Notes: a model not told the origin generated them from the sequence alone. A stretch of 60,441 bases of DNA from Deinococcales bacterium (GCA_031414595.1 JANNVX010000072.1:1-60441); one strand, 5' to 3'; shown: positions 1 to 60,441, counted from the stretch's first letter. Translations and numbers: made by a program.

Positions 1-85
1 CAGGACAGACACAGGGGTCTGTCCCTACAAAATCCATAAAAATACGTCAGGTAGGGGCGGACCCCCGTGTCCGCCCTGTGACCAA
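1..85. repeat. GTAG-type REP doublet (REPIN-like)
   Basis: Two hairpins, CAGGACAGACACAGGGGTCTGTCCCTAC and GTAGGGGCGGACCCCCGTGTCCGCCCTG, with GTAG/CTAC feet facing inward; close copies at 37969-38052 and 45695-45798. Confidence 0.85.
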
Positions 86-100
86 TTGTCTGTTTTTGGT

Positions 101-140
101 CTATTTGAAATCAGGAAGTTATTCTTGGACAGTTCCTAAG
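101..140 (-). mobile_element. putative IS/MITE terminus
   Basis: Reverse complement CTTAGGAACTGTCCAAGAATAACTTCCTGATTTCAA matches 60302-60337 at 31/36 nt. Confidence 0.5.
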
Positions 141-189
141 AGAAACAGCCTACCCCCAGCAAATAAGGTTTGTTATTGGTGTTCGTTCA

Positions 190-1353
190 TTACGGTAAAA
201 ATACAGAAACAGGCATTGGCTTATTGATAAGCGCGGTATCATCACCGAGTTGTCCAACATCATCATATCCCCATGCCAGCATTTTCCCATCGGATTTTAA
301 GGCAAGCGAATGATACCCACCAGCTGAAATAGCGCTAATGCTTGTTGCGCTCGAAACAGAAACAGGAATAGGATTATTGGCGAGTGTTACATCATTACCT
401 AATTGCCCTTTATCATCCTGTCCCCATGCAAACACAGTGTTATCAGATTTTAATGCAAGTGAAATTTCAGCACCGGCAGAAATGGCGGCAATACTTGTTG
501 TACCTGAAATAGAAACAGGAGTCGGTTTATAGACAAGTGTAGCATCATCCCCTAATTGTCCATAATCATCTGATCCCCATGCCAGCATTGTGCCATCAGA
601 TTTACGCGCAAGCGAATGATCGCCACCGGCAGAAATGGCGGTAATAGCCGTTAGTCCCAAGACAGGTACGGGCGTGGTTTTATGGTTTAGGGCAGCGTCA
701 TCACCCAATTGTCCTTTACTATCCACTCCCCATGCCAACACAGTGTTATCGGATTTTAAGGCAAGCGAATGTTGACCACCGGCAGAAATAGCAATAATAC
801 CCGTTGCACCTAAGACGGGAACAGGCGTGGATATGGCGGTATTGACGCTACCATCTCCTATTTGTCCACCGCCGCTCCATCCCCAAGCCAGCATTGTGCC
901 ATCGGATTTTAGTGCAAGCGAATGAAAATAACCCGCCGAAATAGCAATAATATTTGTTGCACCCAAAACAGGAACAGGTGTGGGTTTATCGTCGAGTGCA
1001 GCATTATTACCTAATTGTCCTCGAGCATCTGACCCCCATGCCAGCACTGTGCCATCAGATTTTAGTGCAAGCGAATGATAACCACCTGCCGCAACGGCAA
1101 TAATACCTATTGCACCCGAGACGGGAACAGGTGTGGGTTTATCATCAAGTCCAAAACCATCACCTAATTGTCCTTGATTATCACGTCCCCACGCCAGCAC
1201 TGTGCCGTCAGATTTTAAGCCAAGCGAGTGAAATGCACCCGCCGAAATTTTGGTGATAACCGTTGGCGTGCTTGGTGGCGGCGGTGGCGTGGTTGTTATA
1301 CACGAAAGAAGTGACGCGGACAGTCCAAGAGCTACAAATAGAATTTTTTGCAC
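190..1353 (-). CDS. RCC1-repeat (beta-propeller) lipoprotein
   Basis: GTG start with GGAGG RBS, lipobox-like LLSC, Pro-rich linker, seven ISAGxxHSLALKSDGTxLAWGxxxxGQLG repeats. Confidence 0.9.
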   Translation of the reverse strand: MQKILFVALGLSASLLSCITTTPPPPPSTPTVITKISAGAFHSLGLKSDGTVLAWGRDNQGQLGDGFGLDDKPTPVPVSGAIGIIAVAAGGYHSLALKSDGTVLAWGSDARGQLGNNAALDDKPTPVPVLGATNIIAISAGYFHSLALKSDGTMLAWGWSGGGQIGDGSVNTAISTPVPVLGATGIIAISAGGQHSLALKSDNTVLAWGVDSKGQLGDDAALNHKTTPVPVLGLTAITAISAGGDHSLARKSDGTMLAWGSDDYGQLGDDATLVYKPTPVSISGTTSIAAISAGAEISLALKSDNTVFAWGQDDKGQLGNDVTLANNPIPVSVSSATSISAISAGGYHSLALKSDGKMLAWGYDDVGQLGDDTALINKPMPVSVFLP

Positions 1354-1411
1354 ATTTCCTCCAGCATTCAGTGATGCCTATGTTTTGTATTTTCCGAGTC
1401 GAGAATTAACC

Positions 1412-6450: not shown

Positions 6451-9189
6451 TTAAGAACGCAGCGACTCGAGTTTAGCAGTGACCTCAGCTAGGTTATCAT
6501 GAATGTCTGGACGCACTGGAAGATGGCTATTCTCCAAGGTCTGAATGGCGTTTTGGTATTGCTGTTGCGCCATTTCAAATTGCCCAAGTTCAAAGTAGGT
6601 TACGCCCAAATTATTGAACGCAATGGCAATCCCAGTTGGATTTTCAAAACGTTGTTGCAACCCTAAACTGCGTTCTTGAAACTCGAGGGCGGTGGTCAAT
6701 TGATTCTTTGTGCCGTAAAACATCCCAAGATTGGTTAAAGCCCTCGAGACCCCATGCAGGTCGCCGTTGGTTTCGCGTAAATGCAGACATTCCAGCAGAT
6801 GCTTTTCGGCTTTGCTGTCGTTTAGGGCGGTATAAACCAAGCCCAACCCGCCAAGTGAATCGGCAAGCCTGACCGAATCGCCAAGTACCCGCCGAATTCT
6901 TTGGGCTTTTTGGTAATACACAAGGGCATTGGTATAATCTTTATTGTTGTACTCGAGTGAACCGAGTAAATTATAGGTCTGACTGATGGCGCTCTGGGCG
7001 GCACTGCTGGCAATACCGCCTAACAAATCAAGGGCTGTTGCTAAAAGCCTTGCAGATTGCACAAAATCACGGTATTCGCGTTGCAAAATCCAGACTCGGG
7101 TATTGAGTAACTTAGCTTGCAGCACAGGTTCTAGTATCGCTGTGATGCTCTGGGCAGTCTCGAGTTCTTCAAGGGCTTCTTGGTAACGCCCAAAACTTTC
7201 TAGGGTATTGGCAGTCTCTAAGAATACTTCGGCTCGAGCTTCTGGGCTTCGGGCAATACTTAAACTACGCCCTAACCACATTTGGGCAAGCGCCAAATCA
7301 CCACGTTGGGTTTGGATTTGAGCCAGTTCAAGAAAGGCATGAAAAGCGCTTTTTTCGTCTTTTTCATCCCAGACACTGCGAGCTTCCCAATAATGCCGTG
7401 CGGTGTTGTGGTTTTTGATTTGCGTCGCCCGAAAATGCAGCAAACTGCGCCGTGAAGCCGAAATGTTTTGGTCCAAGACCTCGCGCACAATATCGTGTGC
7501 AAAACCAATTTGTGTGGCGGTTTGACTAATCAGCATGGCATGCCCTAATTCCTCGAGTGCCGCATTTAATTCATCCAACGAACGCCCCGAAACAATTCGG
7601 AGTTCTGCCAGTGTCGCCAGCCCATAAATACACAACGCCTCGAGAATCTGCCGTGCAAGTTCGCTTAAGTTATGCAAGCGCGAACCCACCATTTCCGAGG
7701 TTTTACTTTGTGCATCTGGGGCAAAACGCAGCAATTCCAAAACAAAAAAAGCATTGCCGCCAGAACGTTTTTGTAAAGTAGCAAAGTCTAGGCTGTCCGT
7801 CCCGATGGCTCGAGCCATTTGCATCATGGCGGTTTCGGATAAAGCACTTAACGCCAAAAACTTTGCATGGTGCGCCTCGAGAACCGCCTTGATATTGCTG
7901 CGTGGCGTTTGGGTGTTGCGTTGGGTCAGTAGTAAACGCAAGTCTGGTATTGGGCGCTCGAGCAGAAAAAGCACAAACTCGAGGCTGCTCGAGTCTAACC
8001 ATTGGGCATCTTCAAGCAGCAGTAGGCTAACTTTACAATGGGTCAGTAATACTTTAATGGCTTGAAACAAGACAATCCGCTGACTCGAAAAGCGCGACTC
8101 GAGTAAACTGCTTAAAACGGCTTGTTCGGTTGCCGCTAAAACACTTAAAGCATCAGGAAAATCTTTTAAGCACTCCTGCACCAGCATTTCTAAAAGCGCA
8201 AAGCCAAGGCTTTCTTGGTGAGAACTTAAGCAAATTGTGTAACCCCCAGTAAGCCGCATAACCTCGAGTGCCAACCGTGTTTTTCCTGCGCCCGGCTCAC
8301 CAAGAATCACGGTTGCTTGACCAGCTTGTAAAAAGTTTAGAACCTGCTCGAGTTCTGATTCACGTCCAATCAAGGTTAATTCGGTCTTGGTTATTGGTGC
8401 AGGAATGAGCTGCTGCCCCAACTCGAGTTGCAAGGCTTTTTTACACGCCTCGGGTTGTTCGGAGCGAATGAGTTCAAGCGCCTCTAAGGTACGCCTGCTT
8501 GGTTCAACCCCAAGCTCTTCGAGCAGTAATGTACTGATTTGCGTAAACACCAAAACACCTTGGTCTGCCAGCCCAATTGCTCCAAATGCCAGCATCAAAT
8601 ACCGCGCTGCATCCTCGAACGGGTCGCCATCGGTTGTTTGACTGACTTTAAGAAAGGTTACGGCTGCCTTGTACTCACCAAGCCTGATTTGTTGCACCCC
8701 AAGCCGCACTGCAAATTCTCGACGCTCTAAAATCAAGGTTTCTCTGGTGGTCAATAACCATTCTTCAAATTCTGCCCCTAAACCCATTTCCCAATCGGTT
8801 AAGCGTAAACCTGTCAAAAATGCACCGCGCCATAAATCCCAAACCGAACCATCCAAAGCCGCCATGCCGTTTCTGAACTCGAGGACATCACAAGAAAAAC
8901 CTGTTTGTAAGGCAAAAAACTCTTGGTTGGTGTCCAACACACCCTTACCCAAGGCTTTCTCGAGGGTGTTACGCGCCACCGATAAGTTATTCAAAGCGTT
9001 CGGCGCATCCGCCCAGAGCATGATGCCCAGTTCACGCCGCGAAATCCGCCCACCAAGTGCGGCAATTGCCAGCATCGCAAGGGGTTTAACCCCCAGTTTA
9101 ATGGCTTTTTGACCCAGAAAAACACCTGCCGCACCCAGTAACTCGAGTCTTAAGGGTGATACAACAACGCTTTGGGCTACGACCTGCAT
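6451..9189 (-). CDS. SARP/BTAD-type regulator with AAA ATPase and TPR domains
   Basis: N-terminal LELLG...wHTH/BTAD (ELGVEPS), Walker A GEPGAGKT, LEDAQWLD, GGNAFF, FAHDIVRE, C-terminal TPRs. Confidence 0.9.
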   Translation of the reverse strand: MQVVAQSVVVSPLRLELLGAAGVFLGQKAIKLGVKPLAMLAIAALGGRISRRELGIMLWADAPNALNNLSVARNTLEKALGKGVLDTNQEFFALQTGFSCDVLEFRNGMAALDGSVWDLWRGAFLTGLRLTDWEMGLGAEFEEWLLTTRETLILERREFAVRLGVQQIRLGEYKAAVTFLKVSQTTDGDPFEDAARYLMLAFGAIGLADQGVLVFTQISTLLLEELGVEPSRRTLEALELIRSEQPEACKKALQLELGQQLIPAPITKTELTLIGRESELEQVLNFLQAGQATVILGEPGAGKTRLALEVMRLTGGYTICLSSHQESLGFALLEMLVQECLKDFPDALSVLAATEQAVLSSLLESRFSSQRIVLFQAIKVLLTHCKVSLLLLEDAQWLDSSSLEFVLFLLERPIPDLRLLLTQRNTQTPRSNIKAVLEAHHAKFLALSALSETAMMQMARAIGTDSLDFATLQKRSGGNAFFVLELLRFAPDAQSKTSEMVGSRLHNLSELARQILEALCIYGLATLAELRIVSGRSLDELNAALEELGHAMLISQTATQIGFAHDIVREVLDQNISASRRSLLHFRATQIKNHNTARHYWEARSVWDEKDEKSAFHAFLELAQIQTQRGDLALAQMWLGRSLSIARSPEARAEVFLETANTLESFGRYQEALEELETAQSITAILEPVLQAKLLNTRVWILQREYRDFVQSARLLATALDLLGGIASSAAQSAISQTYNLLGSLEYNNKDYTNALVYYQKAQRIRRVLGDSVRLADSLGGLGLVYTALNDSKAEKHLLECLHLRETNGDLHGVSRALTNLGMFYGTKNQLTTALEFQERSLGLQQRFENPTGIAIAFNNLGVTYFELGQFEMAQQQYQNAIQTLENSHLPVRPDIHDNLAEVTAKLESLRS

Positions 9190-9826: not shown

Positions 9827-9967
9827 TTAAGTACAACCCCGAAATGTTTTAGAGTTTTGTTCCTAAAACATTTCCGACTAACAGGAGTAAGGGCAACGTA
9901 TCTCACGCTGGAATGACAGAATTGACGCTTTTCTGGAAATTCTAAAATGAAAGCGTGAGATACTTAG
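9827..9967 (-). mobile_element. ~140-bp MITE-like element, copy 1
   Basis: Highly similar to the reverse complement of 51822-51962; short terminal inverted repeats, two internal hairpins, YTAR-type ends. Confidence 0.8.
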
Positions 9968-17916: not shown

Positions 17917-20760
17917 TCAGTCCGCAACCAAGGCTGTCGTTTGAAGCGCGAAACGCACCGCCTCCTCGAGTTTCATGACTTTGCCAGTCTTCCAGTGGGC
18001 TTGAAAACTGCTGTTACCGAGCCGGTTTTTGGTCATGGACATGAAGCGCTGGTTGCGTTCATACCAAAGCATGGTCATGCGCGAGTTGTCCTCGGGCTGG
18101 AAGCGTTCGGCTGCTCCCCACAACTGCGCGGCACGTTTTGGCTGTCCTTGCAGTACCGCCAGGCTGGCAAAGTTCTCGAGCGCATTGCGAATGTTCATGG
18201 TGTTTTTGATTTGCCAACTGTACTTGAGCGATTGTTCTGCCAGTAATCGTGCCATTTCCAGTTCGCCAAGGTCCTGCATCACTGCACTGAGGCTGTCTTG
18301 GGCAACGCTCACCATGTAGAGGTCGGGTAAGTCGTGGGCTATTTGCAGTGATTCCTCGAGATAGGTTTTGGCAGCCTGCAAGTCGCCAAGCAAAAACACC
18401 AGAAAGCCCAAATTGTTCAGCGACTGCCCAATGTCAAAACGCGAACCTAAATGACGATTGAGGCTCAGGCTTTCTTCGAGATACTTGCGCCCGTTGACGT
18501 AATCACCTGTAATAATTGCCAAGTTACCACCAACAATCCAAAGTGCATTGGCAATCAGTTTTGGATTCTCAAGTTTTCGTGCCAAGGACAGACCAGCCTC
18601 ACCGTACTCTTGCATTGCTGTCCAGTTGTATTGCTTTTGAGCCACTAAACTTAGACGCAAATAGGCTTGGACAATCTGCTCGTTGTTCTCAAGGCTTTTG
18701 GCAAGCGCCAGACCTTCTTGTCCAGACTCGAGGGCAAGCGCGACGTATTCACTGTGAAGCGAGGCGATGCGTGAAAGCAAAAGTAAGGCTTCTACCCGTT
18801 CTGGGCTGGCGCTTGCCTCTGGGTGCGACAGTACAGTTCTAAGCCAATGAATGCCTTCAGAGCTATAACCCTGAGATTGCCACAAAGCACCAAGCCGCAA
18901 AGCCAGCTTTAACCCAAACATTGCTTGGTTAGTTTCTTGCGACCAAGCCAAGGCAGCCAGTAGGTTTTCGTACTCGCCTTGGCAACATTTAATTTGGGTT
19001 TGCAAACCATCCAAACTGCTTATTTGAATCAGCCCCAGAAAATACTGCGCGTGCTGGTTGCGGGTTATGGGAAGTTCGCCCAACCCAACCAGCTTTTGGC
19101 TGGCATACTCGAGCAGCAAAGGATGAAAGTCGTACCGTCCTTCGGGTTCTGCCAGACGCAATACCGATTTGCCAACCAGTCCAGACAGCAGCCCCAGATT
19201 GGTGTCCGCCACGCTCGAGGCAGCCAGACGGGTAAACCCACCACGAAAGACTGAAAGTTGAGCCAGAATGCGTTGCTCTTTGGGTTTTAAGAGCTTCCAA
19301 GAATGTTCAAAAACCGCTTCGATACTCTGATGCCGACCCGCAATGTTACGGCTCTTGGTCTCGAGCAAACCAATGTTCTGACCGATTTCTGAGGCAATCT
19401 CTGCCAAGGACAGCGAACCCAACCAGACGGCTGCCAGTTCGATGCCCAAAGGTGAGCCTTCTACAAGGCGGCAAATCTCGAGGACTTGCGGCAAATTCTG
19501 GGGGGTCAGTTCAAAGTCCAGCCGCGCCCGTTTAGCGCGTTGCACAAAAAGCCGAATCGCATCTATATACTCGCTTTCGGCAAAGCTGACGTGGTTAGAA
19601 AAAGGCAAGCCTTGAAGGGGCATGATGTATTCTTCTTCAAGGTTGAGGCGTTCCCGTGATGTGACCACGATTTTTAGATGAGGGCATCCGATTAGGATTT
19701 GGGAAACCAGCAGCGCCGCGTCTATCAGATGCTCAAAGTTATCCAAAACCAACAGCAATTGTTGCTTGCCTATCCCTGCCATAACTGAGGCAAAAGGGTC
19801 TTGCTGAACGGTAATCTGGAGTGTTTGGGCAAGGGTGAGTAAAATCTGGTTGGGTTCAGCTAAAGACTCGAGCGGCACGAAGTACACACCATCAGGAAAA
19901 TTCTGTTCTTGTAACTGTTCGCGTGCCAACTGCAAGGCAAGGCGCGTCTTGCCAATGCCGCCCATGCCCAAGAGCGTAATCAACAGCACTTCGGGTTCGG
20001 AAAGCAACTGCCCCAACTCGAGTAATTCTGGGTCACGCCCAATAAATGAAGTCTTGGCTCGAGGCAAATTGTGCGGCGTACCCCCAGCGATGGTCTCTGA
20101 TTGAGCCGCCGAAACAAAACGTGCTTGGGCTTCGGCTCGAGTTTGGCTAAGCTCGAGACCAAACATTTTGCTTTGCTGCTTGGCTTCGCTACACAGCGAA
20201 CTATCACCCGCCAGCAACAACGGATACAAGCGCTCGAGGTCTTCAGGCGGTAAGTCTTGCTTACCTAGCAAAAAGGCTTTTTGGGCATACTGCACTGATA
20301 TCGAAAACATGCCTTGCTTGGCTTCTCGTTCGGCAGCTTTCAGGTACACACCACGCACCGCTCGAGTCACAAATTCACGGGTGCTGTAGACCCATTCCTC
20401 GAGTTCGGCATTCCAATCGGGCAACGAAAAACCCTGCAAGAACTCGCCTGTGTAAAACGCCTCGAGTTTGTTTGGGTTGCGCTCAGCAATGATGCTTTGC
20501 AACTCGGTCAGGTCATACGCAATTTTGGTGGACACGGTGCGTTCATCTGTCAGCACCAAATCAGGGGCGACTTTGCGAAACTGCCCTAAAGCCATTCGCA
20601 AACTGGTGGCTGGGTCAGATGCACCAGACCAGAACAATTCGTACAAATGGCGTTTTTCCTTACTGCCTTCGATTGCTAAGTACGCCAGCAGCAACAACAG
20701 CTTGGGGCGTGGAAAATCCACGAATTCCAAAGCCAGTTTGCCCAACGTTCTAAGGCGCAT
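17917..20760 (-). CDS. SARP/BTAD-like regulator with NB-ARC (STAND) ATPase and TPRs (AfsR-like architecture)
   Basis: MRLRTLGKL wHTH start, HNLPRAKTSFIGR, GMGGIGKTRLA, LVLDNFEH, VTSRERL, GSPLGIELAA, TPRs; TATAAT-N7-ATG at 20760. Confidence 0.92.
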   Translation of the reverse strand: MRLRTLGKLALEFVDFPRPKLLLLLAYLAIEGSKEKRHLYELFWSGASDPATSLRMALGQFRKVAPDLVLTDERTVSTKIAYDLTELQSIIAERNPNKLEAFYTGEFLQGFSLPDWNAELEEWVYSTREFVTRAVRGVYLKAAEREAKQGMFSISVQYAQKAFLLGKQDLPPEDLERLYPLLLAGDSSLCSEAKQQSKMFGLELSQTRAEAQARFVSAAQSETIAGGTPHNLPRAKTSFIGRDPELLELGQLLSEPEVLLITLLGMGGIGKTRLALQLAREQLQEQNFPDGVYFVPLESLAEPNQILLTLAQTLQITVQQDPFASVMAGIGKQQLLLVLDNFEHLIDAALLVSQILIGCPHLKIVVTSRERLNLEEEYIMPLQGLPFSNHVSFAESEYIDAIRLFVQRAKRARLDFELTPQNLPQVLEICRLVEGSPLGIELAAVWLGSLSLAEIASEIGQNIGLLETKSRNIAGRHQSIEAVFEHSWKLLKPKEQRILAQLSVFRGGFTRLAASSVADTNLGLLSGLVGKSVLRLAEPEGRYDFHPLLLEYASQKLVGLGELPITRNQHAQYFLGLIQISSLDGLQTQIKCCQGEYENLLAALAWSQETNQAMFGLKLALRLGALWQSQGYSSEGIHWLRTVLSHPEASASPERVEALLLLSRIASLHSEYVALALESGQEGLALAKSLENNEQIVQAYLRLSLVAQKQYNWTAMQEYGEAGLSLARKLENPKLIANALWIVGGNLAIITGDYVNGRKYLEESLSLNRHLGSRFDIGQSLNNLGFLVFLLGDLQAAKTYLEESLQIAHDLPDLYMVSVAQDSLSAVMQDLGELEMARLLAEQSLKYSWQIKNTMNIRNALENFASLAVLQGQPKRAAQLWGAAERFQPEDNSRMTMLWYERNQRFMSMTKNRLGNSSFQAHWKTGKVMKLEEAVRFALQTTALVAD

Positions 20761-20779
20761 ACAGCCCATTATAAACGAG

Positions 20780-20812
20780 TTTACGCCCAATTTACGCCCC
20801 TCCTTGTAAGGT
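20780..20812 (+). promoter_or_regulatory. promoter with tandem TTTACGCCC repeat (11-bp period) and -10 TAAGGT
   Basis: Repeats at 20780-20788 and 20791-20799; TAAGGT at 20807-20812; lies between the divergent regulator and lipoprotein genes. Confidence 0.7.
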
Positions 20813-20881
20813 CTGTCCAACTGGCTTGGGTTTGAAAAGCCATTCGCCCCGAATCCTTGGTAGTTCTTTATGGAGGTTTGT

Positions 20882-37968: not shown

Positions 37969-38052
37969 CAGGGCGAACACAGGGATTCGCCCCTACCTCA
38001 CGCATCTTTCATGCCATGACCGTAGGGACAGACCCCTGTGTCTGTCCTGTGA
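37969..38052. repeat. GTAG-type REP doublet
   Basis: CAGGGCGAACACAGGGATTCGCCCCTAC ... GTAGGGACAGACCCCTGTGTCTGTCCTG. Confidence 0.85.
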
Positions 38053-41555: not shown

Positions 41556-42143
41556 ATGACCTTAGCGTTGGAACGCCCAACCAAAACACCACCAGTCGAG
41601 CTTGCCCCGAGACGGTTTTCCTATGCCGAATTTGAACAGATGAGCGAGTCTGGATTGTTTGCATCCGAACACGTTGAATTGCTGAACGGAGAGATATTTG
41701 TGAAAGGAATGCAAGGACCAAAACACGCTCGAGCCATTCGTCATTTGAACAAGGTTTTTACTGAATTATTCACCAATAAGGCAATTATATCGCCGCAATT
41801 GCCTCTTATTTTACTGTCCCCACCACCTGATTTTGTTGAACCAGACATGGCACTTTTGCAACTTCCAGAAAATCTTTACGAAGACCGTAACCCAACTTCA
41901 ACCGATGCTATTTTGGTCATTGAGGTTTCAGACACTACCTTGGAGCGCGACCAAAACGCCAAGCTAAGCGCCTATGCCCGAAATAAAATCCCCGAATACT
42001 GGATATTAAATTTGCACACCAATCAACTCGAGGTCAACCGCAACCCAGACAATGAGGACTACCTCGAGACGAATAAATACAAAGTTGGGCAAACTGTTGC
42101 ACCGCTTGAGTTTTTAGATGTGCGGCTTGAGTGGTGGGTGTGA
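41556..42143 (+). CDS. Uma2 family endonuclease-like protein
   Basis: VELLNGEI, EPD, LVIEVSDTTL, YARNKIPEYWILN. Confidence 0.92.
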   Translation: MTLALERPTKTPPVELAPRRFSYAEFEQMSESGLFASEHVELLNGEIFVKGMQGPKHARAIRHLNKVFTELFTNKAIISPQLPLILLSPPPDFVEPDMALLQLPENLYEDRNPTSTDAILVIEVSDTTLERDQNAKLSAYARNKIPEYWILNLHTNQLEVNRNPDNEDYLETNKYKVGQTVAPLEFLDVRLEWWV

Positions 42144-42145
42144 CC

Positions 42146-43405
42146 ATGCTTCAAAGCATTGCTCGCCCAATGGTAGTTGGGTCAGAAAATCATTTGCTCG
42201 AGTCAGACCGTGGAGTACATGATTGGTATCGTTTTGTATTGTCCTTTCCTGCCCACCTCGTCAGGGATTATTTAAGCACTTGGAACTTAAACACTTCCCA
42301 TAAGCTACTTGATCCGTTTTGTGGCACGGGTTCGACTTTGGTTGAAGCACAAAAACACGGTGTCCAGACCATTGGTTTAGATGGAAATCCTGTGGCACAC
42401 TTTGTTGCTGCCACCAAAACCAATTGGTTGCCAAGCCCAAATGGTTTACTTAGATACGCAAAACAAATGGCTGAAATTGCAGAAAATACTCGAGATGATG
42501 CAAACGAACTGAGTGCCGAAACCTATGATTTACTGCTCACAGATTCAATTAGTCCTAAACCGTTACAAAAAATTTTGCGCTTAAAACAGGTCTTACTCGA
42601 GTTAAAAGACACTCAATACTTTGACCATGCCATGCTGGCACTGATAAAAACGGCTGTGACCAATGCCAGTAACCTTCGATTTAGACCCGAAGTTGGTGTA
42701 ACGACCAAGAAAAAAGAGGATGCGGATGTTTACACAAATTGGCTCAGACACATCCAAACCATGACCACCGACTTAGGTTTTATACAAAACTTGCAAGCTC
42801 CTCAAAGTCAAGTGCTTCTTGGTGATGCGCGAAAAGTCAGTTCTTATCTTGAAGCAAGGAGTATAGACGCGGTTTTTACATCCCCACCCTACCCAAACGA
42901 AAAAGATTACACCCGAACAACCAGACTAGAAGCCGTACTACTCGGATTTTTACAGAACAAGCAAGACCTAAGAAACTTAAAACAAAACTTACTCCGATCC
43001 AACACCCGAAACATCTATAAAAATGACACCGACGAACAACATATTTGGCAATTTGATTCAATTATGAATTTAGCCGAGCAAATCGAGAATCGTAGAATTG
43101 AACTCGAGAAAACCAGTGGATTTGAACGCCTGTACGCCAAAGTGACCAAACATTACTTTGGTGGAATAGCCCAGCACTTAGCTTCGTTACGTGCTGTTTT
43201 ACGCCCCGGAGCGCATTTGGGTTATGTGGTTGGTGATCAAGCCTCGTTTTTTAGAATTCTTATTCGCACAGGACAATTAACCGCCGAAATAGCCCAGTCG
43301 CTAGGTTACGAACTGGTCGGTATTAACTTATTCCGCACACGATTCTCGAGCATCACCAAAGAAAACCTACGAGAAGAAATTGTGGTTTTAAGGTGGCACG
43401 GATGA
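42146..43405 (+). CDS. DNA methyltransferase, amino (probably N4-cytosine) type
   Basis: Motif I DPFCGTGST precedes motif IV TSPPY. Confidence 0.92.
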   Translation: MLQSIARPMVVGSENHLLESDRGVHDWYRFVLSFPAHLVRDYLSTWNLNTSHKLLDPFCGTGSTLVEAQKHGVQTIGLDGNPVAHFVAATKTNWLPSPNGLLRYAKQMAEIAENTRDDANELSAETYDLLLTDSISPKPLQKILRLKQVLLELKDTQYFDHAMLALIKTAVTNASNLRFRPEVGVTTKKKEDADVYTNWLRHIQTMTTDLGFIQNLQAPQSQVLLGDARKVSSYLEARSIDAVFTSPPYPNEKDYTRTTRLEAVLLGFLQNKQDLRNLKQNLLRSNTRNIYKNDTDEQHIWQFDSIMNLAEQIENRRIELEKTSGFERLYAKVTKHYFGGIAQHLASLRAVLRPGAHLGYVVGDQASFFRILIRTGQLTAEIAQSLGYELVGINLFRTRFSSITKENLREEIVVLRWHG

Positions 43406-44195
43406 ACAAAACCAATCGCTATGCCCAAATCATCGAATATATTTTCTTAGAACAGTACCAAATTGGAACTCGAGAAATTCTTTCCAGCCGCGAAGACCTG
43501 ACTCGAGTTGCCAATAAACTTGGAATTGTTTTACCAAAAAACTTAGGCGACCTGATTTGCTCATTTCGTTACCGCACCCAACTCCCAGAACAAATCCTAA
43601 ACACCACCCCGCAAGGACAAACATGGGTGATTCGCCCAGCAGGACGCGGACAATACAAATTTGCACTGATCGTCGAAACCAAAATAATACCCAACACGCT
43701 CCTTGCCGAAACCAAAATTCCTGATTCCACCCCAGGCATGGTTTTACGTTACTGCGGCACAGACGAACAGGCATTGCTGGCTAAACTAAGATACAACCGC
43801 CTGATTGATATTTTTACAGGCATCACCTCGTACAGCTTACAAAACCATCTTCGTACCACCGTACCCAACATGGGACAAGTCGAAACCGACGAAATCTACG
43901 TTGGCATAGATAAACGCGGCGCACATCATGTTTTTCCTGTTCAAGCCAAAGGTGGAACTGACCGCCTGAGTATCGTCCAAATCGAACAAGACATTGCCCT
44001 TTGTAAACACAAATTACTGATTTAACTTGCCTAGCCATCGCTGCACAGTTCATGGCTGATAACAAAATAGCCCTATTCGCCTTTCAGGAAACCAATCAAA
44101 CCGCGCAGTTAGTCCTCGAGCGGCACTACCGCTTGGTACAACCCCAAGACCTCAGCAACCAGGAATTGCTCGAGTATCAAAATCGGTTAGATTAA
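43402..44195 (+). pseudogene. putative restriction endonuclease with a 1-nt frameshift near 44015
   Basis: ATGA coupling to the MTase; ETDEIYVG...VQAK PD-(D/E)xK-like motif; reading continues in another frame (TDLTCLAIAAQFM...ERHYRLV...) to TAA 44195. Confidence 0.72.
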
Positions 44196-44352: not shown

Positions 44353-44667
44353 ATGACAAAAAAAACTGAAACTGTAAAACTGAGTGAGTTACGAAATTTG
44401 ACCAATGCAATTTTTGATGAACTCGAGAATTTAGGTCAATCACAAATCTACTTGCGTCATGATTATTATTGGTCATTTGTTGGTCAAAAGCGATACGAAA
44501 TTGAACCGACCCCCAAGCCATCACTCGGTCAACTTTATGACGATTTAGAATTTTTACGAACTGCAAATACTGAAACTAGATTGACTGCATCTCATCTATG
44601 CAATCTTGCTGGCTTATTTAACTACATTGGTGATTTAGGAAACCAAGTCTTTTATGAAGAAAAATAA
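44353..44667 (+). CDS. hypothetical protein
   Basis: GAGG RBS, 104 aa, DYYW and [12 protein letters not shown] motifs. Confidence 0.75.
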
Positions 44668-47600
44668 TATCTATTCTCTCCTCGAGTCACGCATTCTAGT
44701 TTTAGATGGCGCAATGGGAACAATGATTCAGCAGCATAATCTGCATGAAAAAGATTTTCGTCACTCAAGTTTTTCGTCGGTGCAAAGTCTATTTGGCGAT
44801 AATGACCTTCTGTCCATTTCGCGTCCTGAGATCATTCAGGGCATTCATGAAGCCTATCTCGAGGCTGGGGCAGACATCATCAGCACCAATACGTTTAATG
44901 CCACAGCCATTAGCCAACTCGATTATGAAATGCAAAGCCATGTGCGGGAAATTAACCTAGCGGCGGCAAGAGTGGCTCGAGCGGCAGTAGATAAATTCCA
45001 GAGTCTCGAGCAACCACGTTTTGTGGCTGGGGCGCTTGGTCCGACTTCTCGCACGGCAAGTATCAGCCCTAAAGTTGAGGATGCTGCATTTAGAAATGTA
45101 ACTTTTGATGAACTGGTCGAAACCTATACCGAACAAGCCACGGCACTGCTGGATGGTGGTGTGGATTTACTGCTTCTCGAGACGATTTTTGATACCTTAA
45201 ACGCCAAAGCTGCACTGTTTGCCCTCGAGAATTTATTTGAGGCAAGGGGCGTAAGAACCCCGTTAATTATTTCTGGCACGATTACCGACCAATCTGGGCG
45301 AACCCTTTCTGGGCAAACCGCCGAGGCATTTTATATTTCGGTCAAACACGCTAAACCCCTTGCAGTCGGCTTAAATTGTGCATTGGGCGCAGAGATGTTC
45401 CGCCCACACCTTCGGGCGCTCTCGAGCATCGCCACCGAGTTTGTCAGTTGCTACCCAAATGCTGGTTTGCCCAATGCCTTTGGCGAGTACGACGACACCC
45501 CCGAGTACATGGCGCAAGTGCTGGGCAATTTTGCCAAGGAGGGGCTGCTGAACCTCGTGGGTGGCTGTTGCGGCAGTACCCCAGAACATATCAGGGCGAT
45601 TGCCAATGCGGTGCGTGGTCTCGAGCCGAGAAGAGTGCAAGGGGCTTTGGCTGGTCAGCGACCCAGCCCGTCAGGTGCATCTTTAGGGTCAAGACAGGAC
45701 AGACACGGGGGTCTGTCCCTACAAAAACACGAACCTATAGGGGCGAAACAAAAACACGAACCTGTAGGGGCGAACCCCCGTGTTCGCCCTGTTACCAACC
45801 ATGATTCCCCATTTTCCAATCCGATGTTCTCCGGTCTCGAGCCTTTGATTATTACCTCAGACACGAATTTTGTGAACGTTGGTGAGCGCAGCAACATCAC
45901 GGGAAGCCCGAAGTTTTCCAAGGCGATTCTCGAGGGTGATTTTGAGGCTGGGCTGGTGATTGCACGGCAGCAAGTTACGGCTGGGGCGCAAATTGTTGAC
46001 ATCAACATGGATGAGGGTTTGCTCGATTCACAAGCCGCAATGGTTAAATTCCTCAGTCTGGTGGCGGGTGAACCAGAAATTGCTCGAGTGCCTTTGATGA
46101 TTGACTCGAGCAAATGGGATGTTCTCGAGGCTGGCTTGAAGTGTGTGCAGGGCAAAGCGATTGTTAATTCTCTGAGCCTTAAAGATGGCGAACTCGAGTT
46201 TAAGCGCAAAGCCGAACTGGTGCGGCGTTATGGTGCGGCGGCGGTGGTCATGGCGTTCGATGAAGCTGGACAAGCCGATACGCTCGAGCGCCGTAAAGAA
46301 ATTTGCTCGAGGGCGTATCACATTTTGCTCGAGGGTGGTTGGGATGCCACCGATATTATTTTTGACCCGAATGTGCTGACAGTTGCCACAGGCATCGAGG
46401 CGCACAATGCTTATGCACTGGATTTTATTGAGGCGACCCGTTGGATAAAAGAGAATCTGCACGGGGCGCTGGTATCGGGTGGCATCAGCAATGTGTCATT
46501 TAGTTTTCGCGGCAATAACACGGTGCGTGAAGCGATGCACGGCGTTTTTTTGTACCATGCCATCAAAGCTGGGTTGGACATGGGGATTGTCAATGCGGGG
46601 ATGCTCGAGGTTTTTGAGAATATCGCCCCAGACCTGCGTGATTGTGTCGAAGATGTGATTTTGAACCGCCGTGAAGATGCCTCTGAACGCCTGCTCGAGA
46701 TGGCAAATACAGTCAAAGGCGAAAAGAAATCCGAAACCAAGAAACTCGAGTGGCGCAGTTTTGATGTCGAAAAACGCCTCGAGTTTGCGCTGGTGCAAGG
46801 CATTGCCGACTTTATTGAAACTGATGTTGAAGAAGCAAGACACTTGTTTGCTCGTCCGCTTGAGGTCATCGAACAGCCCCTAATGCGTGGTATGAATGTG
46901 GTCGGAGATTTATTTGGGGCTGGCAAAATGTTCCTGCCACAAGTCGTTAAGTCGGCTCGAGTGATGAAAAAAGCCGTGGCGTACCTGACCCCATTTCTCG
47001 AGGCAGATAAACTCGGCAGTGGCTCGAGCAGTGCAGGCAAGGTGCTGATGGCAACCGTCAAAGGTGATGTCCATGACATCGGTAAAAATATCGTCGGGGT
47101 GGTGCTGGGTTGCAATGGCTATGAAATTACCGATATGGGTGTGATGGTTTCGGCTGAACGCATTCTCGAGAAAGCCCAAGAGATTGGCGCGGACTTAATC
47201 GGCTTATCTGGTCTTATCACCCCAAGTTTGGATGAGATGGTCTTTGTGGCTCGGGAAATGACACGCTTGGGAATCACCACACCCCTTTTAATTGGCGGGG
47301 CAACCACCTCTAAAGCACACACGGCTGTAAAAATTGAACCTGTTATCAGCAGTCCAGTGGTTCATGTTTTGGATGCCTCGAGAGCCGTGACTGTGGCGCA
47401 AAAACTTTTATCTACCGAGCGCGATTCGTACCATGCGGATATCAAAGCCCAGTATGCCGCCCTGCGTGCCGCTCGAGCCGAGCGCACCATTAAATTCCTG
47501 AGTTTGGATGAAGCACAAACTAAAAAACCAGTTCTCGAGTTTGCGCCTGTAAAACCCGCGTGGCTCGGCACAAAAACCCTCGAGTACAGCATCTCGAGTT

Positions 47601-48475
47601 TACGTGAGTTGATTGATTGGACACCATTTTTTATTGCATGGGAACTCAAAGGGCGTTATCCGTATATTTTTGATGATGCCGCCGTTGGCAAACAAGCCAA
47701 AGAATTGTTTGCCGATGCCCAAACCATGTTGAATATGCTCGAGACCAAACTAACAGCCAAAGCCGTGATTGGTTTTTGGGAAGCTAATGCGGTGAACGAT
47801 GACATTCATTTAACCTTGGACACCGTAGGGGCGAGGCATGCCTCGCCCCTACGACACGGGATTTTGCATACCATTCGCCAACAACGTGACCAGCGTGAAG
47901 CCAATACCGCCTTATCGGATTTTATCGCGCCAATCAATTCTGGGGTACAAGATTATATTGGGGCGTTTGCTTGCACCATCCACGGGGCAGAACAGGTGGC
48001 TCGAGACTATGAACAAGGGCTAGATGATTACAATTCAATTCTGGTCAAAGCCCTAGCAGACCGTCTCGCCGAGGCACTCGCAGAACAGCTTCATGCCGAT
48101 GTGCGTCGCCAGCATTGGGGCTATGCTCGAGATGAAAGTCTAAGCACTCAGGATTTAATCAAGGAGCGCTATAACGGAATTCGTCCAGCCCCGGGCTATC
48201 CAGCCCAACCAGACCATACCGAAAAAGCCACAATTTTTGCGTTGCTGGGGGCAGAACGAATCGGTTTAGAACTGACCGAAAGTTACGCCATGACCCCCGC
48301 CTCAAGTGTTTCGGGCTTGTATTTCGCACATGCTGACTCGAGGTACTTTGCAGTTGGGCGCATTGCAAAAGACCAAGTAATGGATTATGCAGTGCGTAAA
48401 AACATCAGTCTCGAGGTGGCAGAACGTTGGCTCGCGCCGATTCTTGGCTATGAACCAATTCCATCTGGGCTGTGA
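44654..48475 (+). CDS. metH: B12-dependent methionine synthase with two in-frame repeat insertions
   Basis: [44 protein letters not shown]. Confidence 0.98.
45658..45798. repeat. composite repeat insertion inside metH (AGCCCG repeat + REP doublet + 27-bp tandem duplication)
   Basis: Matches 24333-24361 and 1-85; ACAAAAACACGAACCT(A/G)TAGGGGCGAA occurs twice. Confidence 0.85.
47824..47853. repeat. perfect 30-bp GTAG-REP palindrome inside metH
   Basis: CGTAGGGGCGAGGCATGCCTCGCCCCTACG, read in frame as [10 protein letters not shown]. Confidence 0.9.
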
Positions 48476-50928: not shown

Positions 50929-51825
50929 ATGCCGACAATGCTAAACTTCAAAGAAAAAACAATACCCAAAGAAGCCATAGCCTATTGTCGTGGTATCACC
51001 TCGCACCACAGTAAAACTTTTTACTTTGGCAGTTGTTTTTTTCCTTTTAAGCAACGTCAAGCGGTCTGGACGGTTTATGCGGCTTGCCGAATTGGTGATG
51101 ACACCGTAGACGAATTGGTCGGACAAGAAGCCCGGGATGCCTTGGAGACTTGGCGGACTCGAGTCGAAAATGCCTTAGCAGGTAAGCCAGACCATCACCC
51201 AATGGCACAAGGTTTAGCTTGGGCAGCCGGTCAGTATCCAATCGAATATGCCCCTTTTCACGAATTGTACCTTGGACTGAAAATGGATTTAGAGCAGCAC
51301 CAATATCAAACCCTTGACCAACTGATGCTCTACTGTCGCCGTGTGGCTGGTGTGGTGGGTTGGATGATCACCCCAATTGCTGGTTTTGATGGCGGAGCAG
51401 CCACTTTAGAACGTGCCTTAAAACTCGGTATGGCAATGCAAATCACCAATATTTTACGTGATGTTGGCGAGGACTTAGAACGTAACCGAATTTACTTACC
51501 GATAGACCTGATGGCAAAACATGGTGTGACCGCTTTTGACCTCGAGCAACGCCGCGTTACCCCCAATTACATCGCCTTAATGCGCGAACTCGACTGTATT
51601 GCCCGTCAACTCTACCGCGAAGGCTGGTGTGGCTTACCGCACCTGCATGGCGCAGCCCGAATTGCGGTGGCAGTTGCCGCCAAGTCTTATGAGGCGATTC
51701 TTGGGGCGCTCGAGTTAAATGGTTTTGATAATTTTCATAAACGCGCCTCGATTTCTGGGCAGAAAAAACTCGCCATGATTCCCACGGCGTACCTCGAGTT
51801 ACAACGCACACGGCATCTGCATTAA
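50929..51825 (+). CDS. crtB: phytoene synthase
   Basis: HSKTFY, DDTVDE, YCRRVAGVVG, QITNILRDVGED, RIYLP. Confidence 0.93.
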   Translation: MPTMLNFKEKTIPKEAIAYCRGITSHHSKTFYFGSCFFPFKQRQAVWTVYAACRIGDDTVDELVGQEARDALETWRTRVENALAGKPDHHPMAQGLAWAAGQYPIEYAPFHELYLGLKMDLEQHQYQTLDQLMLYCRRVAGVVGWMITPIAGFDGGAATLERALKLGMAMQITNILRDVGEDLERNRIYLPIDLMAKHGVTAFDLEQRRVTPNYIALMRELDCIARQLYREGWCGLPHLHGAARIAVAVAAKSYEAILGALELNGFDNFHKRASISGQKKLAMIPTAYLELQRTRHLH

Positions 51826-51962
51826 GTACCTCACGCTTTCATTTTAGGATTTCCAGAAAAACGTCAATTCTGTCATTTCAGCGTGAGATACGCCGTCCTT
51901 ACTCCTGTTAGTCGCAAAATGTTTTAGGAAAAACACCTAAAACATTTCGGGGATGTACCTAG
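51822..51962 (+). mobile_element. ~140-bp MITE-like element, copy 2
   Basis: Reverse complement of 9827-9967 with a few differences; starts at the crtB TAA; ends TTAA and CTAG. Confidence 0.8.
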
Positions 51963-51978
51963 CTCATCCTTTGGTGGG

Positions 51979-57508: not shown

Positions 57509-58516
57509 ATGAAACTGAATCCATTTGTACCATCAACTCAAGCCTCGAGCCTGATACCATTGCTGCTGCTGATTGCCGTGGCTTGCAGTATCGTTTCGAT
57601 TGGGATTGGGGCAATTCGGATTCCGCCGCTCGAGGTCATTCAAGCCCTTTTTGATTCATCTGGCAGCATCAATGCTCGGATTGTCCAAGAATTGCGCTTA
57701 CCCAGAATTGTGGTGGCTTTAATTTGCGGCGCATTGTTTGCGGTTTCCGGCACAATGCTCCAAGGCGTGGTTCGTAACCCCTTAGCCAGCCCAGACCTTG
57801 TTGGGGTTGGGGCTGGTGCAGGGGTTTTTGCAGTCATCACCCTGATTTTGCTGCCAAGCGCCCCCAGTTGGTTACTGCCCGTTGGGGCGTTTGTTGGGGC
57901 ATGGCTTGGTTTTGCCTTGGTGCTGCTGCTTGCCCAAAAAGGCGGTGAGATTGCCCCAGTGCGGGTTGCCTTGATTGGCATTGCGGTTGGCGCAGCCCTA
58001 GGTGCAGTCCAACAACTGATTTTGGTTCGCGCCCCAGACGACATCGGACACGCTTTAATTTTTTTGGCTGGGACAGTCTACGGGGCAGATTGGTCTCGAG
58101 TCGAGCGTTTGCTGCCGTGGCTGGCATTGCTGCCCGTGGCATGGGTTTTAGCCTATAAACTGGACGTTCTGGCATTTTCAGATGATGTTGCCAGTGGGCT
58201 AGGAATGCGTTTAATGCTGGCTCGAGTCGTTTGTATGAGCGTAGCCGTTGCGTTAGCCGCCGCAGCCGTAACGGGCGTTGGGGTGCTGGGTTTTGTTGGT
58301 CTGATTGCGCCTCATGCGGCACGGCTTTTAATTGGAGCAAAACACACGTTTTTAATCCCTACCAGTGGGCTTCTTGGAGCAATTCTGGTGGTCTGTGCTG
58401 ATGCGCTTGGACGGGGGCTGATTCCACCCATCGAAGTTCCAGCCGGAATTCTGACCACTTTAATTGGTGCGCCTTACTTTTTAGCCTTAATGCGCCAACA
58501 AGGGAAAATAAAATGA
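57509..58516 (+). CDS. FecCD family iron ABC permease
   Basis: LRLPR, RNPLASP, FVGLIAPH, IGAPYF. Confidence 0.95.
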   Translation: MKLNPFVPSTQASSLIPLLLLIAVACSIVSIGIGAIRIPPLEVIQALFDSSGSINARIVQELRLPRIVVALICGALFAVSGTMLQGVVRNPLASPDLVGVGAGAGVFAVITLILLPSAPSWLLPVGAFVGAWLGFALVLLLAQKGGEIAPVRVALIGIAVGAALGAVQQLILVRAPDDIGHALIFLAGTVYGADWSRVERLLPWLALLPVAWVLAYKLDVLAFSDDVASGLGMRLMLARVVCMSVAVALAAAAVTGVGVLGFVGLIAPHAARLLIGAKHTFLIPTSGLLGAILVVCADALGRGLIPPIEVPAGILTTLIGAPYFLALMRQQGKIK

Positions 58517-59301
58517 GACTCGAGACACAACATTTAAGCCTTGGCTATGAAGATAAAATTATCGTTGAGGATTTGAATTTAACCCTCGAGATGGGCAAAA
58601 TCACCACAATTATCGGCTCGAATGGTTGTGGTAAAAGCACAATCCTGCGTTCTATTGCACGGCTCTTAAAACCCAAAATGGGGGCGGTGCTGTTGGATGG
58701 TAAAGCAATCCATACCCTGCCGAGTAAAACCGTAGCACAGCAACTGGCGATTCTGCCACAAACCCCAACTGCGCCCGAAGGGATTACCGTCGAAGCCTTG
58801 GTTCGTTTTGGGCGCTATCCACACCAAAAATTCTTGCAACCACGCAATCCCCAAGACGACCTCGCCATTGAACAGGCGCTCGAGCAAACCAAAATGCTTG
58901 AGTTGAGAACCCGTCCGCTCGAGACCTTATCAGGTGGGCAACGCCAAAGGGCTTGGATTGCCATGAGTCTGGCGCAAGACACGCCCATACTGCTGCTCGA
59001 TGAACCCACAACTTATTTGGATATTAAACATCAACTCGAGGTGTTGCATCTGCTCGAGGAACTGAATGCTAAAACAGGTAAAACCGTGGTGATGGTGTTG
59101 CACGACCTCAATCAAGCCGCCCGATACAGCCACCAGTTGATTGCAGTCCAAGATGGTCGGGTTATGGCACAGAACACCCCAGAATTGGTGTTGACCAACC
59201 AAGTCGTGCGTGATGTTTTTGGTATCGAGGCGCATCTGATTCTTGACCCGAGCAACGGCAAACCGCATGTGATTCCTTTTGCCTTGGCAGTTAAAAAATG
59301 A
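58513..59301 (+). CDS. iron ABC transporter ATP-binding protein
   Basis: GSNGCGKST, LSGGQRQR, LDEPT, LHDLN. Confidence 0.95.
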   Translation: MRLETQHLSLGYEDKIIVEDLNLTLEMGKITTIIGSNGCGKSTILRSIARLLKPKMGAVLLDGKAIHTLPSKTVAQQLAILPQTPTAPEGITVEALVRFGRYPHQKFLQPRNPQDDLAIEQALEQTKMLELRTRPLETLSGGQRQRAWIAMSLAQDTPILLLDEPTTYLDIKHQLEVLHLLEELNAKTGKTVVMVLHDLNQAARYSHQLIAVQDGRVMAQNTPELVLTNQVVRDVFGIEAHLILDPSNGKPHVIPFALAVKK

Positions 59302-60305
59302 TTCTGGCTCGAGACTTGAGAATGCTCAAGACGTGGTTGGCTTTCCCAATCATGCTTGGGGTTTTACTGTTTACTTTTTTGCTTTCGATTTCGGTGGGTG
59401 CAGCCAATATCCCCTTACTCGAGGTTTGGCGCTTGGTTTTTAACCCAGACGACAGCACCAACAGCCTGATTGTCCAAACCTTGCGACTTCCACGGGCAGT
59501 GGTGGCATTGATGGTTGGCTCGAGCCTCGCCATTAGCGCCGCGCTTTTGCAAGGCGTGACCCGTAATCCATTGGCGGGACCGGGGATTCTCGGGGTCAAT
59601 GCTGGGGCAGCACTGGGCATTTTGGTGGGCATTGTTTTTTTGCCGGGTCTACCAAGCTATCTTTTTGTGTTGCTGGCGTTTGCGGGTGGAGTTGGGGCGG
59701 CGGCTCTGACTTTTGGCGTAACAGCCGCCGTGGGCATTACACCTGTGCGTTTGGCGCTGGCTGGGATTGCGGTGGCATCCTTGCTGGCTGCACTTACTTC
59801 TGGTATTCAGATTTTATTTGAAGAACGCGCTCGAGCCGCTATTTTTAGTCTGGCGGGCAGTCTGGCTGGGCGCACATGGCAACACGCCCAGAGCATCGCT
59901 CCGTGGTTTGTGGTTTGTACAATGCTGGCGCTGCTCTCGAGTCAGTTACTCAATCTGGTTTCGCTTGGCGAAGATGTGGCAAGGGGCTTAGGCGTAAATG
60001 TCAATCTGGCACGGTTTGGTTTGGCGGGTTTGGCGGTGCTGCTTGCTAGTGCTGCCACCAGTGTGGCGGGTCCAATTGGATTTTTGGGTTTAATGTCGCC
60101 GCACTTAGCAAGGGGGCTGGTTGGAGCGGATAACCGCCTAGTGATACCACTTGCTGCCCTGATTGGCTCGAGTATTTTGCTGCTGGCAGATGTTGGCGCT
60201 CGAGTGGTGGATATGCCGCTCGAGACCCCTGTGGGGATTTTAATTACCGCGATTGGCGCACCTTTTTTTGTGTATTTAGCACGGCGGATTGGACGTGAAC
60301 ACTAA
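59298..60305 (+). CDS. FecCD family iron ABC permease
   Basis: LRLPR, TRNPLA, IGAPFF. Confidence 0.95.
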   Translation: MILARDLRMLKTWLAFPIMLGVLLFTFLLSISVGAANIPLLEVWRLVFNPDDSTNSLIVQTLRLPRAVVALMVGSSLAISAALLQGVTRNPLAGPGILGVNAGAALGILVGIVFLPGLPSYLFVLLAFAGGVGAAALTFGVTAAVGITPVRLALAGIAVASLLAALTSGIQILFEERARAAIFSLAGSLAGRTWQHAQSIAPWFVVCTMLALLSSQLLNLVSLGEDVARGLGVNVNLARFGLAGLAVLLASAATSVAGPIGFLGLMSPHLARGLVGADNRLVIPLAALIGSSILLLADVGARVVDMPLETPVGILITAIGAPFFVYLARRIGREH

Positions 60306-60343
60306 GGATTTGTCCCAGAATAACTTCCCGATTTCAAGAATAG
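60302..60343 (+). mobile_element. putative IS/MITE terminus at the stop codon
   Basis: 31/36 identity to the reverse complement of 105-140; begins at the TAA of the permease gene. Confidence 0.5.
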
Positions 60344-60441
60344 TGTCATTCGGTTCTCGGTTTGGTAAAGTCATTTGAATGCAGACCTACTCACTAAAAG
60401 TCAAAAATATGATGTTACGGCTGTACCAGTCACTTAATGAA

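Follow-up and report, generated by a model that had tools for sequence, protein, structure and literature searches.

CTCGAG is a highly iterated palindrome throughout the genomes of an uncultured family of Deinococcales

Why should a single six-base palindrome, CTCGAG, recur several times per kilobase along a stretch of bacterial DNA? The stretch, referred to here as the window, is a whole contig of 60,441 bases (C72) from an uncultured Deinococcales genome (G000; 4.49 Mb in 120 contigs, 47.2% GC, 94% complete, 16S gene not found). An earlier note made from the window alone described the word as highly iterated, occurring in all three frames and between genes to a degree that codon bias alone could not explain, likened it to the cyanobacterial highly iterated palindrome 1 (HIP1), and tied it to methylation-directed repair, recombination or DNA uptake. 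G000 belongs to an uncultured family (f1) represented by 19 genomes in five genera, including a closed genome of another genus (G013, 59% GC); f2–f5 are other families of the same order, and counts at the level of the order cover 151 Deinococcales genomes. What the window shows is a local sample of a highly iterated palindrome that extends through the genome and the family and does not belong to a longer repeat.

The window contains 318 copies (1..60441, unstranded; 14–41 per 5 kb), compared with a mean of 6.50 (standard deviation 2.74, maximum 15) in 100 dinucleotide-preserving shuffles, none of which reaches 318. All seven copies that the earlier note had placed in 46081–46335 are present, forming a cluster (46083..46333, unstranded) within metH with starts at 46083, 46105, 46124, 46193, 46283, 46306 and 46328. 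With a crude set of open reading frames (ORFs; the longest non-overlapping ORFs of at least 100 residues), 278 sites lie in ORFs (5.43/kb; 166, 57 and 55 in the three frames) and 40 lie outside them (4.34/kb).

The whole of G000 carries 23,235 copies (5.18/kb, or one per ~190 bases) versus 972 expected from base composition, and all 120 contigs contain the word, at 2.3–8.6/kb. CTCGAG leads the hexamers of the genome threefold, followed by six words that overlap it; G follows CTCGA in 23,235 of 25,876 cases, 69% of TCGA tetramers lie inside CTCGAG, and the reversed word GAGCTC occurs 6 times. Its observed/expected ratio (O/E) of 23.9 from base composition alone (zero order) becomes 43.5 with a first-order Markov model and 18.1 with a second-order one, and the excess that the earlier note reported thus outlasts Markov correction. 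Under the fourth-order (maximal) model the ratio is 1.16, but this value is circular and no refutation: the expectation derives from CTCGA and TCGAG, sub-words that the motif itself produces; the maximal-order model was therefore rejected as a null.

In G000 the density within ORFs, 5.15/kb, hardly differs from the 5.34/kb of the remaining DNA. Coding sites divide among the frames as 12,102, 4,005 and 4,313, the CTC-GAG frame accounting for 59%. When synonymous codons are shuffled within each ORF, a null that retains the amino acids and the already inflated CTC and GAG usage, ~1,990 sites remain versus the 20,420 observed (~10-fold), and the claim that codon bias is insufficient holds genome-wide. 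Outside the word, CTC makes up 7.9% of leucine codons and GAG 20% of glutamate codons. The dipeptide Leu-Glu, the frame 0 reading of the word, occurs 20,173 times versus 9,074 expected from residue frequencies (2.2-fold) and the reversed dipeptide Glu-Leu at 0.98 of expectation; CTCGAG spells 60% of Leu-Glu pairs versus ~1.6% expected from codon use elsewhere. A force that doubles one dipeptide across a proteome matters for the annotation, codon models and phylogenetics of these genomes.

The effect on a conserved protein can be seen in metH, encoding B12-dependent methionine synthase (44654..48475, + strand, recognised from its Pfam domains), which holds 35 sites. Six CTCGAG-rich Deinococcales metH sequences, the window's included, carry 22–39 sites per gene, and four outgroup sequences carry 0–1. 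At several alignment columns an outgroup-conserved Ile-Glu, Val-Glu or Ile-Asp has become a Leu-Glu spelled CTCGAG, and such changes from ATC or GTC to CTC need transversions at position 1 of the word.

All 19 genomes of the family are similarly rich, with 12,028–35,442 sites each and densities of 4.3–6.8/kb (computed from rounded genome sizes) that are held across GC contents of 47–59% while other palindromes differ. GAGCTC is present at 0–25 copies in 16 of these genomes and at 114, 161 and 568 copies in the other three; G013 has 23,515 CTCGAG sites (4.7/kb, O/E 14.7). Five separately deposited 'Deinococcales bacterium' contigs from metagenome-assembled genomes have a similar CTCGAG density. 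The in-frame presence of the word in conserved proteins and its similar density in 19/19 genomes and five separate contigs exclude an assembly or library artefact, the alternative that the earlier note had raised itself.

Elsewhere in the order the picture is different. Family f3 avoids CTCGAG, with 37–1,193 copies per genome and as few as 37–62 in genomes of 2.8–3.0 Mb, and families f2, f4 and f5 range from parity with GAGCTC to a clear CTCGAG excess (e.g. 12,522 versus 429 in G128, 8,868 versus 73 in G147, and 5–11-fold in genus g13). The word has been driven up in one family of Deinococcales (f1) and down in another (f3). The three states found within one order provide a comparative handle: f1 has the word in hyper-abundance, f3 avoids it, and parts of f2, f4 and f5 show an intermediate excess. 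Viral contigs contain triple CTCGAG clusters at a minimum of 126 loci; most of the 80 long ones come from phages of high GC content, whose normal codon use includes CTC-GAG. Among the viral matches listed there is no GGCC-free phage of 47% GC, which makes them uninformative on whether phages of f1 carry the word.

The unit itself is sharply bounded. Across the ten bases on each side of CTCGAG in G000 all base frequencies fall within 0.17–0.30; there is a slight shortage of C at −1 and of G at +1 (CCTCGAGG has 178 copies), and G at −1 has a frequency of 0.267, with GCTCGAGC at 1,540 copies, near ACTCGAGT (1,324) and TCTCGAGA (1,406). The flanks carry no information, and the unit is therefore the bare 6 bp and not a longer repeat. 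All 18 one-letter variants are at least 17-fold rarer (173–1,368 copies), with transitions near expectation (O/E 1.06–1.26; e.g. CTTGAG 1.06 and CTCAAG 1.08, neither depleted) and transversions below it (0.16–0.70).

Spacing between sites in G000 is Poisson-like (coefficient of variation of gaps 0.99). Counts per kb have a variance/mean ratio of 1.01 in G000 and 0.98 in G013, and for bins of 1–20 kb the ratio is 1.0–2.0; counts are not under-dispersed, and there is therefore no sign of selection on spacing. Gaps shorter than 20 bp are under-represented and a gap of 6 is never seen, such that there are no tandem copies. Autocorrelation is inconsistent among four contigs longer than 170 kb and 400 kb of G013, a small sample not treated by the method used for HIP1 by Xu, Lawrence and Durand (2018; PMC5861425). 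With flanks unconserved and spacing Poisson, the word does not sit in a conserved repeat unit of greater length, such as a repetitive extragenic palindrome or a miniature inverted-repeat transposable element (MITE).

Long gaps are the exception, with 42 of at least 1.5 kb versus ~7 expected, mostly in low-GC (32–42%) stretches of G000. ORFs in the 12 largest encode polysaccharide synthesis functions, defence or conflict systems, pilin-like proteins and proteins of unknown function. The CTCGAG-free stretches are accessory DNA, to all appearances acquired recently, in which the word is at chance level, and lack of CTCGAG serves as a marker of recent acquisition. Low-GC islands without the word include C46:36.7–41.6 kb, C30:4.3–7.5 kb, C14:37.6–40.4 kb and others. 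Their cargo includes O-antigen/polysaccharide genes, an ABC-3C (CTD12 plus DUF2326) module, a clostripain paired with AAA/TPR, and SUKH immunity genes following an ORF of 3,646 residues.

CTCGAG stands out against a genome in which most palindromes are scarce. O/E is below 0.1 for 34 of the 64 palindromic hexamers in G000 versus 2% of the 4,032 non-palindromic hexamers, with GGGCCC at 0 copies, TGCGCA at 2 and CGATCG at 3; GGCC occurs 152 times in 4.49 Mb (O/E 0.011), GATC has an O/E of 0.14, and the degenerate sets GDGCHC, GRCGYC and GGNNCC are purged too. This strong avoidance matches resident restriction systems, including C5 methyltransferases adjoining NgoPII-, TdeIII- and NgoBV-family nucleases, an N4/N6 enzyme beside a ScaI-family nuclease, and a Dam-family enzyme beside a MutH-family protein. 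The avoided set differs in G013 (GATC 1.48, GGCC 0.43), where 13 words fall below 0.1, 10 of them shared with G000. Avoidance therefore follows changing restriction systems, whereas CTCGAG enrichment is constant; the behaviour of CTCGAG in f1 is the opposite of restriction-site avoidance, to which the word is itself subject in f3.

Individual sites are protected. The window was aligned to the orthologous loci of five same-genus genomes (23–45 kb each; 94, 91, 81, 79 and 77% identity), in which 90, 89, 78, 71 and 71% of its CTCGAG sites are intact versus 74, 61, 32, 28 and 24% of other hexamers; at 81% identity (G003), for example, the comparison is 78% with 32%. Sites outside ORFs are intact in 19/20, 20/20, 13/16, 8/10 and 15/20 cases in the same order (binomial P versus non-coding background 0.1, 9e-6, 1e-4, 2e-3 and 6e-5). 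CTC, GAG, TCG and CGA codons are far better conserved within the word than elsewhere; versus G003, CTC is kept in 105/130 cases in the word and 39/111 outside it, and GAG in 112/130 versus 46/139. This comparison of the same codons inside and outside the word is the control that Xu et al. describe for HIP1.

One-letter differences at 88 orthologous sites comprise 40 C/T at position 3, 27 C/T at position 1, 7 T/C at position 2 and 14 transversions, a spread that fits codon constraint and not one special position. Differences of two or more letters are commoner at differing CTCGAG sites than at changed other hexamers (45% versus 28%, against G005). At a greater distance, 170 orthologue pairs from 400 kb of G013 (60% nucleotide identity) share 211 of 1,005 G000 sites, i.e. 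21%, versus 6.7% for other hexamers. Sites are protected, yet most positions turn over between genera while density is held.

These observations show a per-site fixation bias that reads the complete hexamer, creating and preserving sites in genes and spacers alike and independent of position. A change that creates the word has a higher chance of fixation, even at the cost of an amino-acid substitution, and one that destroys it a lower chance, whichever of the six positions is involved. The sharply bounded 6-bp palindromic specificity leads us to infer that the reader is a dimeric type-II-like DNA enzyme, or has comparable precision.

For ~30 years HIP1 itself has gone unexplained and been regarded as peculiar to cyanobacteria; that another phylum holds a second, independent and denser example shows the iterated-palindrome phenomenon to be general. 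The two are alike as short GC-containing palindromes (GCGATCGC in the case of HIP1) that are over-represented tens-fold, in all frames and between genes. As HIP1 is described by Elhai (2015; PMC4390886) and Xu et al., both are also conserved between genomes beyond control words and codon effects, lineage-wide, and unexplained in function. Elhai gives HIP1 densities of ~0.5–2.5/kb, ties highly iterated palindromes (HIPs) to resident methyltransferases and proposes mismatch repair directed by G-methylcytosine (G-meC); Xu et al. describe HIP1 as at most one per 350 nt, periodic at 10–90 kb, and under selection, as judged from conservation. Unlike HIP1 in these accounts, CTCGAG is a hexamer, is found in Deinococcales and not in cyanobacteria, is denser at 5.2/kb, lacks the outer-position flank pattern of the G-meC kind, and shows no periodicity in the limited contiguous DNA available. 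Nor was a co-occurring conserved methyltransferase found for it, whereas Elhai reports one for HIP1 and for alternate HIPs. Another counterpart is GGCGCC, the alternate 6-mer HIP of Calothrix PCC 7103, which Elhai ties to a resident GRCGYC methyltransferase: like CTCGAG it is a plain palindromic hexamer and the dominant word, standing in HIP1's place, with O/E of ~15 or more. As reported there GGCGCC is confined to one or two strains, whereas CTCGAG extends over at least five genera, among which no enzyme in common was found. The HIP-like character that the earlier note proposed is therefore upheld (15–24-fold excess, all frames, spacers, conservation, lineage-wide occurrence), and the cause it suggested (methylation-directed repair, recombination or uptake) is not shown. 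No published report of CTCGAG abundance was found in the literature searched, subscription journals being outside its scope.

Most likely, though put forward tentatively and at rather less than an even chance, is a mechanism in which mismatch correction or gene conversion is biased through methylation. CTCGAG would be an adenine-methylation site, CTCG-m6A-G (m6A, N6-methyladenine), a modification that has been measured in cultured Deinococcales. Wherever a site is hemimethylated or newly methylated, strand choice in mismatch correction or gene conversion would be tilted toward the word-bearing strand, such that new sites would ratchet in and old ones be protected, and no function would be needed at each site. 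Tables S3–S5 of Blow et al. (2016; PMC4752239) list, for three cultured species of Deinococcales, active m6A enzymes that act on CTCGAG and for which no cognate nuclease is given: M.Mru1279II of Meiothermus ruber (99.5% of CTCGAG sites detected), M.Mch9957IV of M. chliarophilus (94.1%) and M.Mhy14884I of Marinithermus hydrothermalis (94.6%). The main text of that paper mentions CTCGAG for Nocardia replication origins only, and abundance of the word in these species is not discussed there. The Meiothermus and Marinithermus enzymes share their word and their order with f1. Several f4 and f5 genera have a milder CTCGAG excess over GAGCTC. With CTCGAG methylation already measured in cultured Deinococcales, it can be tested directly whether iterated palindromes are created by methylation. 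The earlier note's tie to methylation is favoured by these three species; against it, no family-wide enzyme was found in the classes tested, and the flank bias that Elhai's model requires is absent.

Methyltransferase genes are plentiful in G000. Matches over the cut-offs number 5 for PF00145, 8 for PF01555, 10 for PF02384, 9 for PF07669 and 1 for PF02086, partly overlapping and corresponding to ~25 genes, nearly all of which carry CTCGAG at genomic density; the specificities of such enzymes are not readable from sequence. No orthologue of the Meiothermus and Marinithermus CTCGAG enzymes was found in the f1 genomes, and the two TaqI_C-type enzymes of G000 are just ~24–28% identical to those of f4 and f5 genomes. 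The XhoI-family nuclease (PF04555) is present in 5 of 23 f4 genomes, as a broken copy in 1 of 37 f2 genomes, and in 0/19 of f1. Several candidates were rejected. The f1 counterparts of the methyltransferase linked to XhoI in f4 are motif-level matches only, and a 62-residue fragment 50% identical to it, truncated where contig C5 ends, has a stop inside. Two C5 methyltransferases with no recognised nuclease neighbour are restricted in distribution, L080 being confined to the genus of G000 (7/19, with a stop in G003) and L084 to 2/19 genomes of the family; the TaqI-like L099 is found in 3/19, and L102 in 3/19 plus distant matches, one at 31%. The XhoI nuclease, Vsr and a MutH-like nickase were rejected as drivers, being either not found or not family-wide.

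Several of the results weigh against a methylation-coupled bias. The PF01555 methyltransferase beside the XhoI-family nuclease of f4 has an orthologue in 0/19 f1 genomes, Vsr was not found in G000, and a MutH-family gene occurs in 2/19 genomes (G000 and G005). TaqI_C-type enzymes are present in 6/19, and both these and PF01555 enzymes are absent from the closed G013, whose matches are four to PF02384 and one to PF00145, at most 39% identical to any G000 ORF when the median identity of G000–G013 orthologue pairs is 64%. L097, the G000 protein nearest to three of these matches, was rejected for belonging, as M subunit, to a complete type I system, and L403 of G013, shared with G011 at 82% identity, for being paired with a NucS_C-like nuclease beside an insertion sequence. 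The search for a cognate enzyme that the earlier note had suggested thus yielded no family-wide methyltransferase in the enzyme classes covered, which for G013 do not include D12, MT-A70 or unclassified enzymes. Finally, parsimony with G001 as outgroup assigns 6 gains and 22 losses, with 10 ambiguous, which is not the balance expected at equilibrium; the events are too few to be of use, and parallel gains would count as losses.

A possible but somewhat doubtful alternative is direct selection of each CTCGAG, methylated or not, with an abundant protein reading the word for a chromosome-level function such as nucleoid organisation. We know of no such reader protein. In its favour, sites in genes and spacers are better conserved than control hexamers and than identical codons outside the word, and density is held in all 19 genomes across their range of GC content; nor does this alternative require a conserved methyltransferase, consistent with the negative searches. 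A chromosome-level role of this sort is what Xu et al. (2018; PMC5861425) propose for HIP1, in an account that infers selection from the same conservation test. Spacing is Poisson and not regular, however, with periodicity unseen in the 170–400 kb sequences within the limits of sample and method given above; positions are largely interchangeable, 211 of 1,005 being common to two genera; and some 23,000 sites costing amino-acid changes would each need an effective benefit.

Deinococcota, like cyanobacteria, carry multiple chromosome copies. Rather than a conventional conserved methyltransferase, the reader could belong to a system of whole-site biased gene conversion between these copies, which we consider unlikely. 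If true, sequence-specific conversion drive in polyploid bacteria would generally leave hyper-iterated palindromes as a by-product, and here the drive would be acting in a lineage from which nearly all other palindromes have been purged. Expanded Uma2-type PD-(D/E)xK nucleases are a speculative candidate for such a conversion system.

Distinctly unlikely, too, and a shade more so, is an uptake or recombination signal, in which fragments carrying CTCGAG would be preferentially taken up or recombined among kin, driving the word through the genome as in the molecular drive of the uptake signal sequence (USS) of Haemophilus and the DNA uptake sequence (DUS) of Neisseria. In favour of such a signal are the natural competence of Deinococcus and Thermus, the presence of type IV pilin-like genes, the contrast between core DNA rich in the word and recently acquired low-GC islands that lack it, the rewriting of proteins to fit it, and an extreme restriction-site avoidance, which implies heavy DNA traffic past many restriction systems. 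USS and DUS resemble CTCGAG in being genome-wide, in genes and spacers, in reshaping peptides, in their absence from foreign islands, and in being explicable by drive without a function at each site. To our knowledge no uptake specificity has been described in the Deinococcus phylum. The known signals (USS of Pasteurellaceae, DUS of Neisseriaceae) are 9–12 bp long and non-palindromic, with flanking preferences and ~1 copy per kb, unlike CTCGAG, which is palindromic, 6 bp, without flanks and at 5/kb; against an uptake signal, too, flank information is nil, there being no consensus beyond 6 bp from −10 to +10. The introduction of Xu et al. (PMC5861425) gives uptake signals as ~10 bp.

Repair bias at a single position is highly improbable. 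It would take the form of Vsr-type T:G correction at 5-methylcytosine or of Elhai's G-meC-directed mismatch repair, and it is favoured by the prevalence of C/T at positions 3 and 1 (40 and 27 of 88) among one-letter differences and by five C5 methyltransferases in G000. Vsr is missing from that genome as searched, however, CTTGAG and CTCAAG are not depleted, gains require changes at all positions (transversions included), the bias toward G at −1 and C at +1 is absent, one corrected position cannot lift a hexamer 24-fold, and no C5 methyltransferase was found in G010 (91% complete). The remaining reading, that the excess follows merely from codon, dipeptide or base composition or is an artefact of the assembly or library, has in its favour the predominance of the CTC-GAG frame and the circular maximal-order ratio and can be dismissed on the equal non-coding density, the tenfold shortfall of synonymous shuffles, the rarity of CTC, GAG and GAGCTC, and the constancy of density among 19 genomes and five separately deposited contigs; single-position repair, codon bias and artefact are all contradicted by the observations.

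Among the other features of the window is a three-gene cassette (41556–44025) consisting of a Uma2-family nuclease (41556–42143), a methyltransferase-like ORF of 424 residues with weak PF01555/UPF0020 matches (42131–43405), and an ORF of unknown function of 210 residues (43393–44025). Uma2-type PD-(D/E)xK nucleases have 18 paralogues in G000, one of which is this window copy. The methyltransferase-like ORF was rejected as a candidate reader, having a DNA match in G005 only among the five same-genus genomes. Two large STAND-type ORFs on the − strand, one with BTAD, AAA_16 and TPR domains (6451–9189; 912 residues) and one with NB-ARC/NACHT and TPR domains (17917–21459; 1,180 residues), both carry CTCGAG at the usual density.

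A MITE-like repeat of ~140 bp is present on opposite strands at 51821–51964 and 9828–9966. G000 has ~5 full copies, none of the five containing CTCGAG, and there are many in all five same-genus genomes searched; the repeat was rejected as a neutral clock for having too few copies. The MetH linker (window 45611–45880) contains an in-frame insert of ~50–60 residues between the homocysteine- and pterin-binding domains that is absent from the four outgroups and differs in length among close relatives. The insert is composed of short modules of 26–40 nt, one of them a hairpin, with 84 blast hits in G000. These modules recur at dozens of places in the genome, including window positions 1–26 and 38024–38050, and are reminiscent of in-frame insertions of palindromic elements.

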